Positions 29,487-64,000 of a DNA stretch of 64,000 bases are shown piece after piece (the first letter of the stretch is position 1; each line of letters opens with the position of its first letter). The translations under genes and the position numbers were made by a program. The notes under the pieces were generated by a model. It saw only the letters and a program-made list of their open reading frames with translations, was not told the origin of the DNA and ran no database searches. The stretch is from Escherichia coli. GTDB lineage: Bacteria; Pseudomonadota; Gammaproteobacteria; Enterobacterales; Enterobacteriaceae. The DNA lies in the NCBI RefSeq assembly GCF_001677475.2, contig NZ_CP015229.1. One strand, written 5' to 3'.

Positions 29487-29687
29487 ACTCTCTCCTTATA
29501 ACCAATTGTTCTTGTTTTGTTAACATTGATAACAATTCGGTCAGTCTGACAGAGGGCGTCCGCGAGTCGAAATGATTTATCTGAGGAAGAAAAGCCAAAA
29601 AAAGCATAAAAAAAGCGCAATAAGAAAACGTTTGCTATTTATTGCCACAGGTCAATTCCCTTTTGGTCCGAACTCGCACATAATACG

Positions 29688-29722
29688 CCCCCGGTTTGCA
29701 CACCGGGAATCCAGGAGAGTTC
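29688..29722 (+). promoter_or_regulatory. pyrD leader hairpin and Shine-Dalgarno
   Basis: cccgg-tttgcaca-ccggg hairpin immediately 5' of AGGAG SD and pyrD ATG; pyrimidine-dependent leader control is a recalled mechanism, not shown by the sequence. Confidence 0.5.
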
Positions 29723-30733
29723 ATGTACTACCCCTTCGTTCGTAAAGCCCTTTTCCAGCTCGATCCAGAGCGCGCTCATGAGTTTACTTTTCAGCAATTA
29801 CGCCGCATTACCGGAACACCGTTTGAAGCACTGGTGCGGCAGAAAGTGCCTGCGAAACCTGTTAACTGCATGGGCCTGACGTTTAAAAATCCGCTTGGTC
29901 TGGCAGCCGGTCTTGATAAAGACGGGGAGTGCATTGATGCGTTAGGTGCGATGGGATTTGGATCGATCGAGATCGGTACCGTCACGCCACGTCCACAGCC
30001 TGGTAATGACAAGCCGCGTCTCTTTCGTCTGGTAGATGCCGAAGGTTTGATCAACCGTATGGGCTTTAATAATCTTGGCGTTGATAACCTCGTAGAGAAC
30101 GTAAAAAAGGCCCATTATGACGGCGTCCTGGGTATTAACATCGGCAAAAATAAAGATACGCCAGTGGAGCAGGGCAAAGATGACTATCTGATTTGTATGG
30201 AAAAAATCTATGCCTATGCGGGATATATCGCTATCAATATTTCATCGCCAAATACCCCAGGATTACGCACTCTGCAATATGGTGAAGCGCTGGATGATCT
30301 CTTAACTGCGATTAAAAATAAGCAAAATGATTTGCAAGCGATGCACCATAAATATGTGCCGATCGCAGTGAAGATCGCGCCGGATCTTTCTGAAGAAGAA
30401 TTGATCCAGGTTGCCGATAGTTTAGTTCGCCATAATATTGATGGCGTTATTGCAACCAATACCACACTCGATCGTTCTCTGGTTCAGGGAATGAAAAATT
30501 GCGATCAAACCGGTGGCTTAAGTGGTCGTCCGCTTCAGTTAAAAAGCACCGAAATTATTCGCCGCTTGTCACTGGAATTAAACGGTCGCTTACCGATCAT
30601 CGGTGTTGGCGGCATCGACTCGGTTATCGCTGCGCGTGAAAAGATTGCTGCGGGTGCCTCACTGGTGCAAATTTATTCTGGTTTTATTTTTAAAGGTCCG
30701 CCGCTGATTAAAGAAATCGTTACCCATATCTAA
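29723..30733 (+). CDS. pyrD: Dihydroorotate dehydrogenase (quinone)
   Basis: ATG at 29723 ([21 protein letters not shown]), 336 aa. Confidence 0.9.
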
Positions 30734-60639: not shown

Positions 60640-60831
60640 TTAAAGTCCTGCCGGGACTTCGTTATTATCCATGCGAATAACTTTATCGACCGGATAACAG
60701 TTACCGGGAATTTTTTGTTCTGCTGCGGCAGCCATGCATTCTTTCATTGAACCGTATAAGCCAGTCACCAGCTCAAGAGATTCGCCGGAAACAAGATAAA
60801 CTGTCAGAACGAGTGCAAATGTTGTATTCAT
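60640..60831 (-). CDS. Hypothetical small protein (63 aa) with hydrophobic N-terminal segment
   Basis: ATG preceded by AAGGA SD; start overlaps upstream stop (ATGA); sequence MNTTFALVLTVYLVSG suggests signal/TM segment. Confidence 0.55.
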   Translation of the reverse strand: MNTTFALVLTVYLVSGESLELVTGLYGSMKECMAAAAEQKIPGNCYPVDKVIRMDNNEVPAGL

Positions 60832-61016
60832 TGTTTATATCCTTTTTGCCGCAGGTCCAGACGAGCCAGCATTGAAGGAATGCATACTTCATTTAACAGG
60901 TCCTGCTCGAGTGTTCTCTGCTTAATGGCGTCTTCAATAAATGTTTTGTCTCCGGTGATAACGCCAATTTCGAAACGAAGTTCAGACGTACTGGCATTGC
61001 ATGATAACTTTTCCAT
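60828..61016 (-). CDS. Hypothetical small protein (62 aa)
   Basis: ATG preceded by GAGGA SD at 7-nt spacing; translationally coupled to downstream 63-aa gene. Confidence 0.55.
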   Translation of the reverse strand: MEKLSCNASTSELRFEIGVITGDKTFIEDAIKQRTLEQDLLNEVCIPSMLARLDLRQKGYKQ

Positions 61017-61033
61017 TATCGCGTCCTCAACAA

Positions 61034-61186
61034 TGAATTTTGTGATGCGGTGCCTGGTGCCTCCAGGTGACGTTAACCAGTTAACAATTAACGCCGGAGT
61101 ATTTCACGTTACGCCAGTAAAGGACCGCTTTACTGTTTTAACTGTTCCGCGTGCGCTTAGCCGCATTCACCGCATCACAAAATTCA
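61034..61186. repeat. 19-bp perfect inverted repeat (TGAATTTTGTGATGCGGTG / CACCGCATCACAAAATTCA) flanking a 115-bp hairpin-rich spacer
   Basis: Arms at 61034-61052 and 61168-61186; spacer holds nested hairpins cctgg-tgcct-ccagg, cgttaa...ttaacg and cagtaaag-gaccg-ctttactg; no ORF over 26 aa on the minus strand across 61017-61573. Confidence 0.7.
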
Positions 61187-61573
61187 CTTTAAAAAGGGCG
61201 GACATCAGCCAGCAATGAAAACTGATGCCGCCAAAGGTACCAATCAACATGGAGTGTTGCGGCGGGGTTGTCACTCAGGCGTATGGTCAACCTGACAACC
61301 CGGTGTCACCAGTGGGGGTAAGGAAAACCCCGCCATACTTACCGCCGCGCCATTTCGCGGAGTGCCACAACCGGAAGCGCACGGTCGACGAAAATTTAAC
61401 GACAGGCTATCTATGAACCATAAACCTCGCCGTGCGCTTTCGCGTTATGCCCTGACTTTTCAGGGAAATATCCTTTCAGTAAACTGTCAGTGCCGGATGT
61501 TCACCCGTGTCCGGCGCACGCACTCCACCTCACCCGTGGAGAACCCCTTAATTACCAACCCTCAGGAGAGTGA

Positions 61574-61807
61574 ATGTTAAAATCAACTCTTATTGCTAAA
61601 TGCCTTTATCAAAATCGCATGGTAAGCAGCATTTCAATAGGCGAGTCTGCAGTTAAAAGTATTTTCGAAGAGTTCTTTCCCGGGCATGATTTTAATAAAT
61701 GGAATACCAAATTACCGCCAGCAGTTTCAACGCGTATTCTGAAAGCAACTGAAAGAGCAAGTACAATTCGCGTTAACTATTTCATTAAAGATTTGTGGGA
61801 TCTTTGA
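61574..61807 (+). CDS. Hypothetical AT-rich small protein (77 aa), opposite orientation to neighbours
   Basis: ATG preceded by AGGAGA SD; low GC relative to surroundings; 3' end overlaps convergent 135-aa gene by 23 bp. Confidence 0.45.
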   Translation: MLKSTLIAKCLYQNRMVSSISIGESAVKSIFEEFFPGHDFNKWNTKLPPAVSTRILKATERASTIRVNYFIKDLWDL

Positions 61808-62192
61808 TATCCACAGAGCCTAAAGTATGTGCATATGGATGTGCTATTGTGCGCCCTCGCAGATTTGCATCATTTTCTAAATTCACTGAACGAAACAGGG
61901 CATCAACAAGGCTCTGTACAATGCAAAGGCAATCGAAGACTGTCGCTGTTTCTGTTTTGATTGATGAAAGAACATGGCCATTCACGCAAACAGAAATTAC
62001 CCGTTCATTAACATCGCTTTCCTGCTTTTGATTATCAGAACTATATAGCCCAGAAAAAGCATTGCGCACATTATGAACCATATTATCGATGGTTTCTTTT
62101 TCTACGGTACTCAGGTCAAGAGTCGCCAGTTGAGAACGAACTATATTCGCTGCCATTTCCTGGAATGGTACTGGTAAATCTTTAAATTCCAT
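61785..62192 (-). CDS. Hypothetical protein (135 aa; alternative start at 62204 gives 139 aa)
   Basis: ATG at 62192 with GAGG 6 nt upstream; upstream gene stop TGA lies within the ribosome-binding region, implying coupling; no recognisable motif. Confidence 0.6.
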   Translation of the reverse strand: MEFKDLPVPFQEMAANIVRSQLATLDLSTVEKETIDNMVHNVRNAFSGLYSSDNQKQESDVNERVISVCVNGHVLSSIKTETATVFDCLCIVQSLVDALFRSVNLENDANLRGRTIAHPYAHTLGSVDIKDPTNL

Positions 62193-62207
62193 CGTCAACC
62201 TCATCAG

Positions 62208-63116: not shown

Positions 63117-63404
63117 TTAAGGTGTTACAGGGAACTGTCGGCGGGCGTGAACTACGCTAACAATTTCAATGCCTGAAATTGTCACGCGGTATAGAATTAT
63201 GTAATTGGGGTGAGCAACAATTTCACGCAAACCCGGAACTCTGTCGCTTGGCGGGTATAAATACGGATGCTCAGATAATGGCAGGACGCAAGTCCTTAAG
63301 CGTTTCCACAAACGTTCTGCCGCATCTATATCAAAACGAGCAATATAGCTAGTTATATCATCCAAGTCGGCATCTGCGCTTTCGAGCCATAAAACCGGTA
63401 ACAT
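63117..63404 (-). CDS. parE: ParE/RelE-family toxin
   Basis: 95 aa; family pattern (LPVLWLESADADLDDITSYIA ... PGLREIVAHPNYIILYRVTISGIEIVSVVHARR); start abuts antitoxin stop (TAAATG). Confidence 0.8.
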   Translation of the reverse strand: MLPVLWLESADADLDDITSYIARFDIDAAERLWKRLRTCVLPLSEHPYLYPPSDRVPGLREIVAHPNYIILYRVTISGIEIVSVVHARRQFPVTP

Positions 63405-63596
63405 TTACTGCTTGCTCCGTTCCTTGCGCATGTTAGCAAAGCGTTCAGCCATTCTGCGTTCAACTTCGTCATGTGGGATGGCTGGACGTGGATCAGCAAG
63501 GCTTGCGGCCACTTTTGCACGCAGCCATTCGTTATAACTATTTTCTTGCTCGATGGTTTCAAATTCAGAAACCATTGGTGAAAGGGCTGTGTTCAT
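63405..63596 (-). CDS. Small antitoxin (63 aa), PaaA-like partner of the ParE-like toxin
   Basis: ATG at 63596 with GAGG SD; immediately upstream of toxin; size and position as in recalled three-component paaR-paaA-parE modules. Confidence 0.7.
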   Translation of the reverse strand: MNTALSPMVSEFETIEQENSYNEWLRAKVAASLADPRPAIPHDEVERRMAERFANMRKERSKQ

Positions 63597-63631
63597 GGCG
63601 AACCTCGTTTTGTAAGTGCTGGTAATTCTGC

Positions 63632-64000
63632 CTAGGTAACTTTTTGTTGTGCTGCTAGCCACCTTGCAACTATACGATCCATTGTCTCTTTTTTTTCCTT
63701 CATATCTTTAAGTATTTGCTGTTGATCTTCCTCTGGAAATGCCTCAAATGTTTGAAGTAGCTCCTTTTGCTTAGGAGATATTTTTAATATATCCTGTGTT
63801 TTGTCTTCTTTTTCTTCATTTAATGGTAAGAAAAACCAATGTTGGGGAAAACCCGTTACTTCAGATAGTTTATCTAGATTAGCTGCTGTAGGGCTTGATA
63901 TACCACAAACCCACCTTTGGACGGATTGTTGAGCAATACCAATTCTGCGCGCAAGCTCTGCTTGACTCCAGCCTTTTTCTAATAGAAGCATCTTAATTCT
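63632..64000 (-). CDS. HTH XRE-family transcriptional regulator (PaaR-like), 5' end beyond window
   Basis: Helix-turn-helix signature GWSQAELARRIGIAQQSVQRW; frame open to window edge; 35 bp upstream of the antitoxin gene. Confidence 0.75.
   Translation of the reverse strand, partial: RIKMLLLEKGWSQAELARRIGIAQQSVQRWVCGISSPTAANLDKLSEVTGFPQHWFFLPLNEEKEDKTQDILKISPKQKELLQTFEAFPEEDQQQILKDMKEKKETMDRIVARWLAAQQKVT

Follow-up and report, generated by a model that had tools for sequence, protein, structure and literature searches.

A perfect 19-bp inverted repeat in an Escherichia coli prophage dicBF operon as the probable core of an RNase III stem between a variant DicF and dicB

What occupies the 557 nt at 61017-61573 of the window (the whole 64-kb stretch of DNA that was analysed), where a perfect inverted repeat and a dense array of hairpins lie between genes? 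Comparison with known genomes points to an answer. Over 98% of its 557 nt the segment is 87.6% identical to E. coli K-12 BW2952, in which the matching stretch occupies the space from dicB to ydfC. It has matches in 4731 of 5426 complete E. coli genomes, with a median of 2 and up to 10 copies per genome, and the homologous position in phage Tritos is annotated as DicF. The gene order dicB-ydfD-exonuclease is common to the window, K-12 and Tritos. Gene order and strand logic are those of the dicF locus in the K-12 Qin cryptic prophage (ydfABC-dicF-dicB-ydfD), while the upstream neighbors differ, with ydfC directly adjoining in K-12 versus a 139-aa ORF and an antisense 77-aa ORF in the window.

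On the strength of this homology, the segment is very probably the ydfC-dicF-dicB intercistronic region of a Qin-type (lambdoid PL-like) dicBF operon on the minus strand: a long non-coding stretch of transcript that carries a variant DicF with a structured precursor upstream of it, and in which the inverted repeat forms an RNase III stem. The functional strand of the segment is the minus strand. The dicF locus, DicF maturation and the dicBF operon are already known and have been studied since 1989-1990; the present copy is another one, in another prophage. From 5' to 3' on the minus strand, the features are as follows.

61443-61573, minus strand: 5' part of the intercistronic non-coding RNA, hairpin-rich, highly conserved and largely invariant across 34 distinct homologues
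61371-61446, minus strand: hairpin A, with a stem of about 14 bp (61442-61430 with 61384-61372) and a variable apical part; inverted repeat I6, putative RNase III substrate
61246-61370, minus strand: leader body of pre-DicF, with a long-range helix (61371-61364 with 61263-61256) around two or three hairpins in the consensus fold of 56 homologues
61191-61245, minus strand: variant DicF sRNA, consisting of a single-stranded 5' part, the terminator hairpin GGCGGCAUCAG...CUGAUGUCCGCC and a U-tail, assigned from the Rfam DicF match and a position homologous to K-12 dicF and Tritos DicF
61168-61195, minus strand: 5' strand of the closing stem P1, made of the DicF U-tail and repeat arm 61186-61168, from fold and covariation; probable RNase III cut at 61177/61176
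61053-61167, minus strand: STnc100-like core with H1 (61164-61149), the P2 base (61148-61146 with 61098-61096), a hypervariable insert (61145-61099), H3 (61095-61069) and H4 (61067-61053), from an Rfam STnc100 match and our own covariance model
61024-61052, minus strand: 3' strand of P1, made of repeat arm 61052-61034 and an extension, from the fold; its last 7 nt, UUGAGGA (61030-61024), contain the dicB Shine-Dalgarno sequence
60828-61016, minus strand: dicB, a 62-aa cell-division inhibitor and the first gene 3' of the element (NCBIfam NF049927 CellDivInhibDicB, 117.4 bits against a cut-off of 100)

The DicF copy is a divergent one. The Rfam DicF model (RF00039) aligns over its full length (positions 1-52) to 61245-61196 on the minus strand with 44.1 bits (E = 2.3e-7), short of the gathering score of 48, whereas K-12 DicF and other relatives score 71-77 bits. 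Because the PyrD leader is the sole feature to pass in a scan of the whole window at Rfam gathering thresholds, this DicF would escape standard annotation. Its setting is that of a dicBF-type operon, from the ydfC-side genes to dicB, with both flanks homologous to K-12 in alignments. A single-stranded 5' part precedes a Rho-independent terminator that forms the 3' end, a 13-bp hairpin that has a single bulge and leads into UUUUU (−20.1 kcal/mol). Promoter and terminator scans of the segment gave nothing exceeding chance, the loop of the DicF terminator being larger than the scanner's limit, so that this terminator was missed. The terminator scaffold (UUUGGCGG...CCGCCC and U-tail) is shared with K-12 dicF. 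The body differs: compared with K-12, the window DicF has a 5' part reduced by 8 nt and without the 5' seed UUUCUGGUGAC, and its loop reads UUUUCAUUGCUGG where K-12 has UUUUACUCCGUGAC, so that the K-12 ACUCCG loop motif is absent. Since both seed and loop motif are missing, the targets of this variant may differ from those of K-12 DicF. DicF is a small RNA that blocks cell division, its characteristic activity being base-pairing with the translation-initiation region of ftsZ. In a simple duplex calculation against the K-12 ftsZ leader, shuffled controls did as well as either K-12 DicF or the window DicF, so that the calculation is uninformative even for K-12.

Upstream of DicF, the GC-rich stretch singled out in the initial annotation is real (GC content 0.54-0.56 at 61200-61500 versus 0.38-0.45 in the flanks), and it corresponds to the DicF precursor. 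Variation in the 5' part (61443-61573) is confined mostly to the first ~15 nt, at a mosaic junction, and has no codon periodicity. The consensus fold of 61559 to 61443 contains no pairs with compensatory change, in a sequence that varies too little for covariation to support or refute structure. Hairpin A, which is the same in K-12 Qin dicF, folds to −27.4 kcal/mol (z = −2.6); its variation consists almost entirely of wobble changes and a few unpaired cells, and one pair (columns 31/82) has a single compensatory AU. The leader body that follows is about 95% identical to K-12, as judged by eye from the conservation line of the alignment.

In K-12, a 190-nt pre-DicF depends on RNase III and a 53-nt form of DicF depends on RNase E (PMC10448788). 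Counting 190 nt back from the K-12 DicF terminator places the 5' end of the former at CCGUGCG/CUUCC/GGUUG, which falls at about 61372-61377 in the window, in the 3' base of the hairpin A stem. Mapped by alignment from the K-12 experiments, RNase III would therefore be expected to cut the base of hairpin A at this point to give the ~190-nt pre-DicF, and an RNase E-dependent cut at the 3' edge of the leader body (61246-61370) would generate the 5' end of mature DicF.

The inverted repeat lies on the other side of DicF. Its arms, at 61034-61052 (TGAATTTTGTGATGCGGTG) and 61168-61186, are 19 nt long, 100% complementary and 115 nt apart, exactly as first described, although they span only the first 153 bp of the segment (61034-61186) and do not bound all 557 bp as had been claimed. 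A search allowing up to 3 mismatches finds the 19-mer at only those two sites in the 64-kb window (0.01 expected by chance). The many genomic copies of a known repeat family that, according to the initial annotation, would overturn its reading exist only in the sense that each copy is in a prophage dicF-type locus. DicF is only 5 nt upstream of the repeat, its U-tail ending at 61191 and the arm starting at 61186. Directly after the DicF terminator, the repeat is predicted to form a stem of 28 pairs, P1, with the 19 perfect Watson-Crick pairs as its core and pairing that continues 9 bp past the arms. Folding of the 179 nt from 61195 to 61017 gives −70.9 kcal/mol, compared with −45.9 ± 4.2 for shuffled sequences (z = −6.0, 0 of 200 shuffles), and the spacer, in which at least three hairpins had been noted, is predicted to hold four helices. 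The plus strand reaches z = −5.8, so that fold energy alone does not tell the strands apart.

Comparative evidence does separate them. Among 91 distinct homologues, 96.9% of cells are paired versus about 40% with slid partners, and 36 cells are changed on both sides versus 5.9 in shuffles. A broader set of 46 sequences has 17 pairs with compensatory change; shuffles give 8.1 ± 2.1 and slid partners 7-9. For P1 itself, 89-95% of cells are paired across 46-91 distinct homologues, compensatory changes included, and the outer pairs are kept in 88-100% of cells even though the dicB and kilR contexts differ in sequence there. At three pairs, changes from G-C to G.U and from C-G to U.G account for 17, 11 and 19 cells. 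The arm changes are wobbles and compensatory pairs, and therefore fit a minus-strand RNA only. The covariation of the arms across related prophages that had been proposed as a check is thus present; of the other checks proposed with it, the folding is given above, and the Rfam covariance search returned DicF and STnc100 matches that both stay below their gathering scores.

This evidence also bears on the readings in which the segment acts as DNA or encodes protein. The arms could be the terminal inverted repeats of a 153-bp non-autonomous transposon, a miniature inverted-repeat element as the initial annotation had offered among its options: they are perfect, look terminal, flank a short non-coding body, and occur in several copies per E. 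coli genome. We reject this reading, whose probability is negligible: the syntenic position is fixed, target-site duplications are lacking (the flanks are AAAG and TTGT), and the arms vary as an RNA helix typically does, by wobble and compensatory substitutions. In 89 of 91 loci the element sits in the same place, with a DicF-type terminator directly upstream and a small gene downstream, and the two exceptions (L053 and L054), among late-region tRNAs, are likewise at a fixed phage position. There is a single copy in the 64-kb window, and base pairs outside the arms reach into the U-tail of DicF on one side and the dicB ribosome-binding site on the other. That the two arms are instead bound by protein as DNA, as an operator pair or as a recombination or packaging site, agrees with the very high conservation of the arms and core halves and with a plus strand that folds almost as well by energy alone. 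It is nonetheless highly improbable, since the G-C to G.U and C-G to U.G changes would be mismatches in DNA or irrelevant on the other strand. The arms are also 115 bp apart, the operators known for the dicBF operon are about 2 kb away at dicA-dicC (PMC10448788), and in K-12 the homologous stretch is transcribed and, as reported in PMC5069750 and PMC9438474, cleaved here by RNase III.

A decayed or unrecognized protein-coding gene, either in the plus-strand ORFs or as a minus-strand pseudogene, is likewise very unlikely. The plus-strand ORFs at 61225-61416 (63 aa) and 61362-61580 (72 aa) exist and overlap the GC-rich part, the second with the ATGTTAA overlap onto the 77-aa ORF and with about 70 codons open in the same frame in K-12, and some phage records carry a "hypothetical protein" here. 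Against this, variable columns are spread evenly over codon positions (28/30/30 and 15/14/11) without a third-position excess, which agrees with the initial view of these ORFs as weak. A 1-nt indel puts the window out of frame with K-12, where the ORF is framed differently and its boundaries differ, no NCBIfam family is matched by either ORF, and RefSeq has no gene there in K-12 or O55:H7; an intact protein-coding gene in relatives, named at the outset as the finding that would overturn a non-coding reading, is thus not annotated in these two genomes. The statement that the minus strand has no ORF longer than 26 aa holds for ATG starts; with GTG or TTG starts there are ORFs of 31-35 aa at 61167-61274, 61189-61290 and 61287-61382.

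With P1 read as an RNA stem, the published processing of K-12 DicF can be placed on it. RNase III requires about two helical turns (at least 20 bp) of uninterrupted double-stranded RNA, and the 28 predicted pairs of P1 are long enough. PMC5069750 and PMC9438474, both citing Faubladier 1990, describe a 72-nt DicF produced by RNase III in K-12. Placed by counting 72 nt in K-12, the 3' end of this species maps to AAAGUGAAUUUUGU/GAUG, equivalent to 61177/61176 in the window and inside the 5' arm of the repeat. Both published RNase III cuts, for the 190-nt and the 72-nt species, map into the two long stems of the segment. The repeat that is perfect in the window has two G.U pairs in K-12, where the closing stem and core before dicB are otherwise shared. 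The expectation that this is a structured RNA or processing site, not random spacer, was thus borne out: the region is that of dicF, and the repeat is the core of a stem reported to be cut by RNase III. The initial annotation had missed the identity of the dicF locus (DicF at 61245 to 61191), the repeat as the core of an RNase III stem, and the GC-rich part as pre-DicF precursor.

In such a scheme, DicF would end either at its own terminator or, in read-through transcripts, some 19 nt beyond it, where RNase III would cut (61177/61176). A staggered double-strand cut could then separate DicF from the dicB-ydfD message and set free the enclosed four-helix core of about 130 nt; the leader left on dicB would be short and unstructured, with its ribosome-binding site exposed. 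Folding and covariation indicate that P1 links the DicF U-tail with the stretch immediately ahead of the start of dicB, where it covers the dicB Shine-Dalgarno sequence. The predicted pairing at that point, in which the U-tail faces UUGAGGA through mostly G.U and A-U pairs, is weak, so that any translational consequence for dicB can only be inferred. RNase III processing stems are found in the early polycistronic transcripts of phages, for example in the lambda N leader and at the early R1-R5 sites of T7, where long intercistronic double-stranded RNA upstream of a ribosome-binding site is cut to separate cistrons and reshape the downstream leader. Those stems have a simple internal loop or bubble, whereas the stem in the window encloses a conserved multi-helix core of 115 nt. 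The upstream product also differs, being a regulatory sRNA here, and the effect on dicB is a prediction.

The enclosed core is, by sequence and model scores, a divergent, below-threshold relative of the prophage sRNA family STnc100. The Rfam STnc100 model (RF02076) matches it with 38.0 bits over model positions 21-154 of 206. Such cores, in the window and at homologous positions elsewhere, score 33-44 bits, none reaching the gathering score of 47, versus 136-165 bits for canonical STnc100 copies, and canonical membership was rejected on score. Detection is reciprocal: R1, our covariance model built only from dicF-type cores, gives 182 bits on the minus strand of the window versus 32 on the plus strand and finds canonical STnc100 at 46-62 bits (rough E 1e-12 to 1e-17). 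Compensatory changes occur in P2, H3 and H4. STnc100 (EcOnc27/sRNA103, PasD-related), a group of Hfq-associated prophage sRNAs from lambdoid late regions, shares with the core its helix order, consisting of a closing stem, GGUGAAU junction, first hairpin, variable middle and long third hairpin, as well as the 3' motif UCACC-(C/U)GGAGGCACC-GGCACC that closes back on the stem. Each directly follows processed RNAs, tRNAs for STnc100 and DicF for the core. The two differ in the sequences of H1 and H3 and in the closing stem, lengthened to 28 bp in the core. Canonical STnc100 ends in a terminator and is a stand-alone late-region sRNA, whereas the core has no terminator of its own (the dicB ribosome-binding site comes next) and is embedded in an early-left operon mRNA leader. 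No mention of an STnc100-like module after DicF was found in the dicBF or STnc100/PasD papers returned by searches of open-access PubMed Central and bioRxiv.

The two constant halves of the core are near-invariant in 91 distinct loci that have different DicF hairpins beside the core and different genes downstream of it (dicB, kilR and others), and the core is almost unchanged ahead of dicB, kilR and the tciA of P7 and D6, with the hypervariable insert in its middle. There, 30-60 nt are swapped for unrelated sequences among loci, and the window and K-12 carry different insert types. An 8-bp GUAAAG/CUUUAC hairpin is found only in the window-type insert. The idea that the insert is always a hairpin was rejected, the 38 insert variants folding with z from −1.7 to +1.6, mostly near zero. 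The helix order alone, a closing stem and four arms, recalls a cloverleaf. A tRNA-like core was rejected: ARAGORN found nothing in 60800-61800, there was no Rfam tRNA match at E ≤ 1, and the H4 loop has 5 nt.

The core also occurs without DicF, next to late-region tRNAs (L053 and L054), ahead of tciA/terB in P7 and D6, in remnant form in P1 and in a Klebsiella phage. The ban operon of phages P1, P7 and D6 resembles the dicF arrangement, in that a dicF-like sequence, processed tRNAs and the same core stand right before a possible cell-division-inhibitor gene (tciA/terB). It differs in having tRNA genes between the dicF-like sequence and the core and a closing stem of only ~9 bp; the phage P1 core is truncated (model positions 23-151, 70 bits). 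In P7, D6, the Klebsiella phage and the late-region loci the closing stem has 9-10 bp. Because this is too short for RNase III, the core must do more than provide a cleavage site.

These observations bring in a reading that overlaps with the RNase III stem between DicF and dicB and does not oppose it. The repeat-enclosed unit could be mainly a separate functional RNA, either an STnc100/PasD-type Hfq-associated sRNA or a protein-binding scaffold, in which constant arms flank an exchangeable middle. In that case the long stem would simply be its closing helix, lengthened in dicF contexts, and RNase III cleavage would serve maturation of the core and not chiefly DicF finishing or dicB control. 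We consider this a serious possibility that falls somewhat short of even chances. It is favored by the near-invariance of the core beside changing DicF hairpins and downstream genes, by its presence without DicF in other phage settings, and by the reciprocal detection of canonical STnc100, which overlaps the Northern-confirmed Hfq-binding sRNA EcOnc27/sRNA103 (PMC12711010, PMC7873438). The swapped, non-hairpin middle of 30-60 nt has the look expected of a seed or specificity region. Against it stand the missing terminator, the Rfam gathering score that is never reached, and the lack of a nameable target or binding partner. A more specific version, which we advance tentatively and hold to be rather unlikely, is that the repeat also acts as the stem from which a second RNA is excised, an unannotated module of about 130 nt from the STnc100 superfamily. 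Its scaffold arms would be invariant and its middle hypervariable and mostly unstructured, and after release from the dicBF (or kilR, or P1-ban) transcript it would be stable, with targets or a protein partner of its own.

For the variant DicF, the lack of the K-12 seed and loop motifs suggests that prophage dicF copies in pathogenic strains may not be interchangeable regulators. If the second RNA exists, the "DicF locus" would be a two-RNA cassette that temperate enterobacterial phages put ahead of cell-division-inhibitor genes. The core, if released, would explain why the spacer is better conserved than the surrounding genes, and would be one more phage-borne regulator at a locus important for virulence and cell division.

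The 557-nt gap at 61017-61573 lies among minus-strand genes, which are arranged from right to left as follows.

YdfC-like ORF, minus strand: 84 aa, rightmost of the genes around the gap
61785-62204, minus strand: 139-aa ORF, between the YdfC-like ORF and the gap
DicB ORF, minus strand: 62 aa, left of the gap (117 bits with the curated DicB model, cut-off 100)
YdfD-like ORF, minus strand: 63 aa, left of the DicB ORF
816-aa ORF, minus strand: left of the YdfD-like ORF, labelled only by its position, at which related records annotate an exonuclease VIII-type exonuclease

Of 5426 complete E. coli genomes, 4731 contain a match to the segment when it is used as a query; identity is typically 80-90%, and the median is two places per genome. 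The match in K-12 (BW2952; 87.6% identity over 98% of the query) exactly spans the dicB-ydfC gap of the Qin prophage, and the homologous place in phage Tritos is annotated as "DicF antisense sRNA". Together with the DicB match and an Rfam DicF match, these hits identify the segment, on grounds of homology, as the dicF intercistronic region of a dicBF-type operon, and we consider its identity as the dicF processing region very probable. The host backbone resembles E. coli, with a pyrD-zapC-ycbX region 98.8% identical to that of E. coli, so the prophage sits in an E. coli or Shigella-type chromosome. A PyrD leader is present at 29655-29728 on the plus strand (Rfam RF02373, 97.9 bits).

K-12 has ydfC directly where the window has a 77-aa ORF (61574-61807, plus strand) that is preceded by a good Shine-Dalgarno sequence and runs antisense to the dicBF-type operon in which it lies. 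This ORF matches phrog_10348 (E = 8e-47), is annotated by PGAP in O55:H7, and overlaps the 3' end of the 139-aa ORF by 23 nt. Farther along, 2 small minus-strand ORFs of 95 and 85 aa (63117-63662) abut at 63404/63405; judged by eye only, they look like a RelE/ParE-type toxin and antitoxin, and they adjoin a helix-turn-helix repressor-like ORF at 63632-63991.

The Rfam DicF match (61245-61196, minus strand) scores 44.1 bits (E = 2.3e-7), slightly below the gathering score of 48. A scan of the window at the gathering threshold did not report it, so routine annotation misses this copy. Its 5' part is 8 nt shorter than that of K-12 DicF and lacks the UUUCUGGUGAC found there, and the loop is UUUUCAUUGCUGG in the window (61191-61245, minus strand) whereas K-12 has UUUUACUCCGUGAC. 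The window copy is a DicF variant that has neither the seed motif nor the loop motif of K-12. Related loci show at least 6 types of DicF hairpin.

Downstream of DicF lies the inverted repeat, whose 19-nt arms (61034-61052 and 61168-61186) are separated by 115 nt and are complementary at every position (100%). The initial annotation had treated this repeat as the boundary of the whole segment; the arms are exact, but they bound only 153 bp of the 557. In the folded minus-strand RNA, the repeat lengthens to a closing stem (P1) of 28 pairs, through pairing of AAAG and the 5 tail U residues of the DicF terminator with sequence 3' of the 3' arm, the last 7 nt of which, UUGAGGA, include the dicB Shine-Dalgarno sequence. 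The stem encloses a core with the following helices.

61164-61149, minus strand: helix H1
61148-61146 with 61098-61096, minus strand: P2, a short helix surrounding an insert
61095-61069, minus strand: helix H3
61067-61053, minus strand: helix H4

The proposal of a structured RNA was borne out by folding energy, with the 179 nt from 61195 to 61017 reaching -70.9 kcal/mol against -45.9 +/- 4.2 for shuffles (z = -6.0), an energy that on its own does not distinguish the 2 strands. Relatives gathered via DicB and via a 22-nt core motif gave 91 distinct sequences, in which 96.9% of cells were paired (about 40% with slid partners) and both sides had changed in 36 cells (5.9 in shuffles). When P7, D6, a Klebsiella phage and late-region copies were added, compensatory change was found at 17 of 51 pairs, distributed across P1, P2, H3 and H4; shuffles gave 8.1 +/- 2.1 such pairs and slid partners 7-9. 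G-C to G.U and C-G to U.G substitutions are frequent, being seen already among the window, K-12, Tritos and PPompW, and such wobble changes are compatible only with a minus-strand RNA. A covariance model that we built from dicF-type cores scores 182 bits on the minus strand of the window and 32 bits on the plus strand.

The exact arms had also been offered as a miniature inverted-repeat element or an operator pair. A window-wide search for further copies of the 19-mer with up to 3 mismatches returned the 2 arms only (0.01 matches expected by chance), and the single copy, its fixed position, the lack of a target duplication and arms that evolve like an RNA helix lead us to reject a miniature transposon. 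An operator pair or other DNA site is likewise rejected, on the wobble substitutions and because the operators of this operon are located at dicA-dicC. A tRNA-like element is unsupported, with no match from ARAGORN or the Rfam tRNA model.

A decayed gene was also considered for the GC-rich upstream part, where GC is 0.54-0.56 across 61200-61500 versus 0.38-0.45 in both flanks, as had been described. The 2 weak plus-strand ORFs reported there are present, as is the ATGTTAA overlap with the start of the 77-aa ORF; the claim that the minus strand has no ORF above 26 aa is correct for ATG starts, but GTG or TTG starts give ORFs of 31-35 aa. From 61573 to 61246, identity to K-12 is about 95% (by eye, from the alignment), a conservation exceeding that of DicF. 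Variation has no codon periodicity (28/30/30 and 15/14/11 over the three positions), the K-12 counterpart has one 111-aa ORF in another frame and a 1-nt indel relative to the window ORFs, and neither ORF has a protein-family match in NCBIfam. The region is therefore non-coding, and a decayed gene is rejected on these same observations. A consensus fold of 56 homologues contains a hairpin of about 14 bp (hairpin A, 61446 to 61371), together with inner hairpins and a helix that pairs 61371-61364 with 61263-61256 over a long range, supported mostly by wobble changes plus 2 isolated compensatory cells, one in hairpin A; the first 130 nt vary too little across homologues for covariation. Like the core insert, hairpin A has a hypervariable stretch at its apex (about 61390-61425).

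In considering processing, we separate what was obtained in this analysis (homology to the dicF locus, a minus-strand RNA structure with covariation, and no coding signal) from K-12 experiments and from inference. In K-12, DicF is processed out of a polycistronic transcript starting at dicBp, with the 5' end of a 190-nt species requiring RNase III and a 53-nt species requiring RNase E (PMC10448788). The 3' end is given, in 2 papers citing Faubladier 1990, as DicF's own terminator or, where RNase III cleaves the full-length mRNA, as the end of a 72-nt DicF (PMC5069750, PMC9438474). Counting these lengths on the K-12 sequence and moving them over by alignment, rather than from a published map, places the 72-nt end at AAAGUGAAUUUUGU/GAUG (61177/61176), midway along the 5' arm of the inverted repeat, and the 190-nt start at CCGUGCG/CUUCC/GGUUG (61372-61377), at the 3' base of hairpin A. 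Thus, the segment's 2 long stems match both reported RNase III events. The RNase III and RNase E steps and the 53-, 72- and 190-nt species are K-12 results that would carry over to the window transcript by alignment. If RNase III made a staggered cut in the 28-bp stem, dicB would be left with a leader of about 25-29 nt and a free ribosome-binding site, and the core would come away still closed by a short protective stem. Because the Shine-Dalgarno pairing is weak, we hold a translational effect of this cleavage on dicB with moderate confidence. RNase III processing also seems to stabilize the upstream ydfA-containing RNA (PMC10448788), and we suggest that stable 3' hairpins could be the cause.

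The core also resembles STnc100, an RNA that overlaps the Hfq-binding sRNA EcOnc27/sRNA103 (PMC12711010, PMC7873438) and has been linked to PasD. The Rfam STnc100 match in the window (61184-61039, minus strand) reaches 38 bits, below the threshold of 47, and the same model gives only 33-44 bits on dicF-type cores; our model gives 46-62 bits on canonical STnc100, copies of which (136-165 bits) lie directly after tRNA genes in some of the same contigs. Both share helix order, GGUGAAU, and UCACC-GGAGGCACC-GGCACC. Given this mutual detection at low scores and the common motifs, the core is a divergent STnc100 relative, and by the curated threshold not a member.

The core halves GGUGAAUGCGGCUnnGCGCACGCGGAACAGUUAAA and CCGGCGUUAAUUGUUAACUGGUUAACGUCACCUGGAGGCACCAGGCACC are nearly invariant over all 91 loci, the invariance of CCGGCGUUAAUUGUUAACUGGUUAACGUCACCUGGAGGCACCAGGCACC being partly set by the search pattern itself. 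The 30-60 nt between them (61099-61145, minus strand, in the window; columns 54-123 of one homologue alignment, A7) are swapped for several unrelated sequence types, which fold no better than shuffles and are not consistently structured. A DicF-type terminator hairpin, with a widely varying loop, lies directly upstream in 89 of 91 aligned loci (all dicF-type contexts); in the 2 exceptions, L053 and L054, the core is found among late-region tRNAs, and its closing stem is short, at about 9 bp. Downstream, dicB follows in Qin-type phages, kilR in Rac-SA53, Shigella Stx phages and one record labelled Actinobacillus phage, and several other small ORFs in further relatives. P7 and D6 have the core in their ban operon too, directly upstream of tciA/terB, where the stem is again about 9 bp; phage P1 retains a remnant.

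L172, 1777-1942: core copy of P7
L173, 1777-1949: core copy of D6
L171, 1799-1922: core copy of phage P1

In P1-like phages the ban operon contains tRNA genes as well, and the P1 record marks a "dicF-like region" within it. Up to 3 superfamily copies occur in D6 and some lambdoid contigs. Some relatives have three or four non-coding RNAs in series (DicF, core, IsrK, C4), and isrK and C4 antisense RNA genes lie at most 100 nt past the core at L122 (4658-4846) and L132 (1877-2065). Near-identical E. coli-type DicF and core copies appear in 2 further phage records. In the 254-kb Straboviridae genome of Aeromonas phage AP1 (MT713136.1, 249920-250142; L049), the copy lies at the end and is not followed by dicB; the other record is Actinobacillus phage pPE4 (L050). 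For these Aeromonas- and Actinobacillus-labelled copies, contaminated or misassembled sequence may be the explanation instead of a real host range.

Both the locus and the sRNA with its processing are already well established. A DicF variant below the Rfam threshold is not obvious from the open-access PubMed Central and bioRxiv papers found, and the same holds for the module next to it: the stem 3' of DicF encloses a strongly conserved STnc100-like module, which phages reuse before dicB, kilR and tciA.
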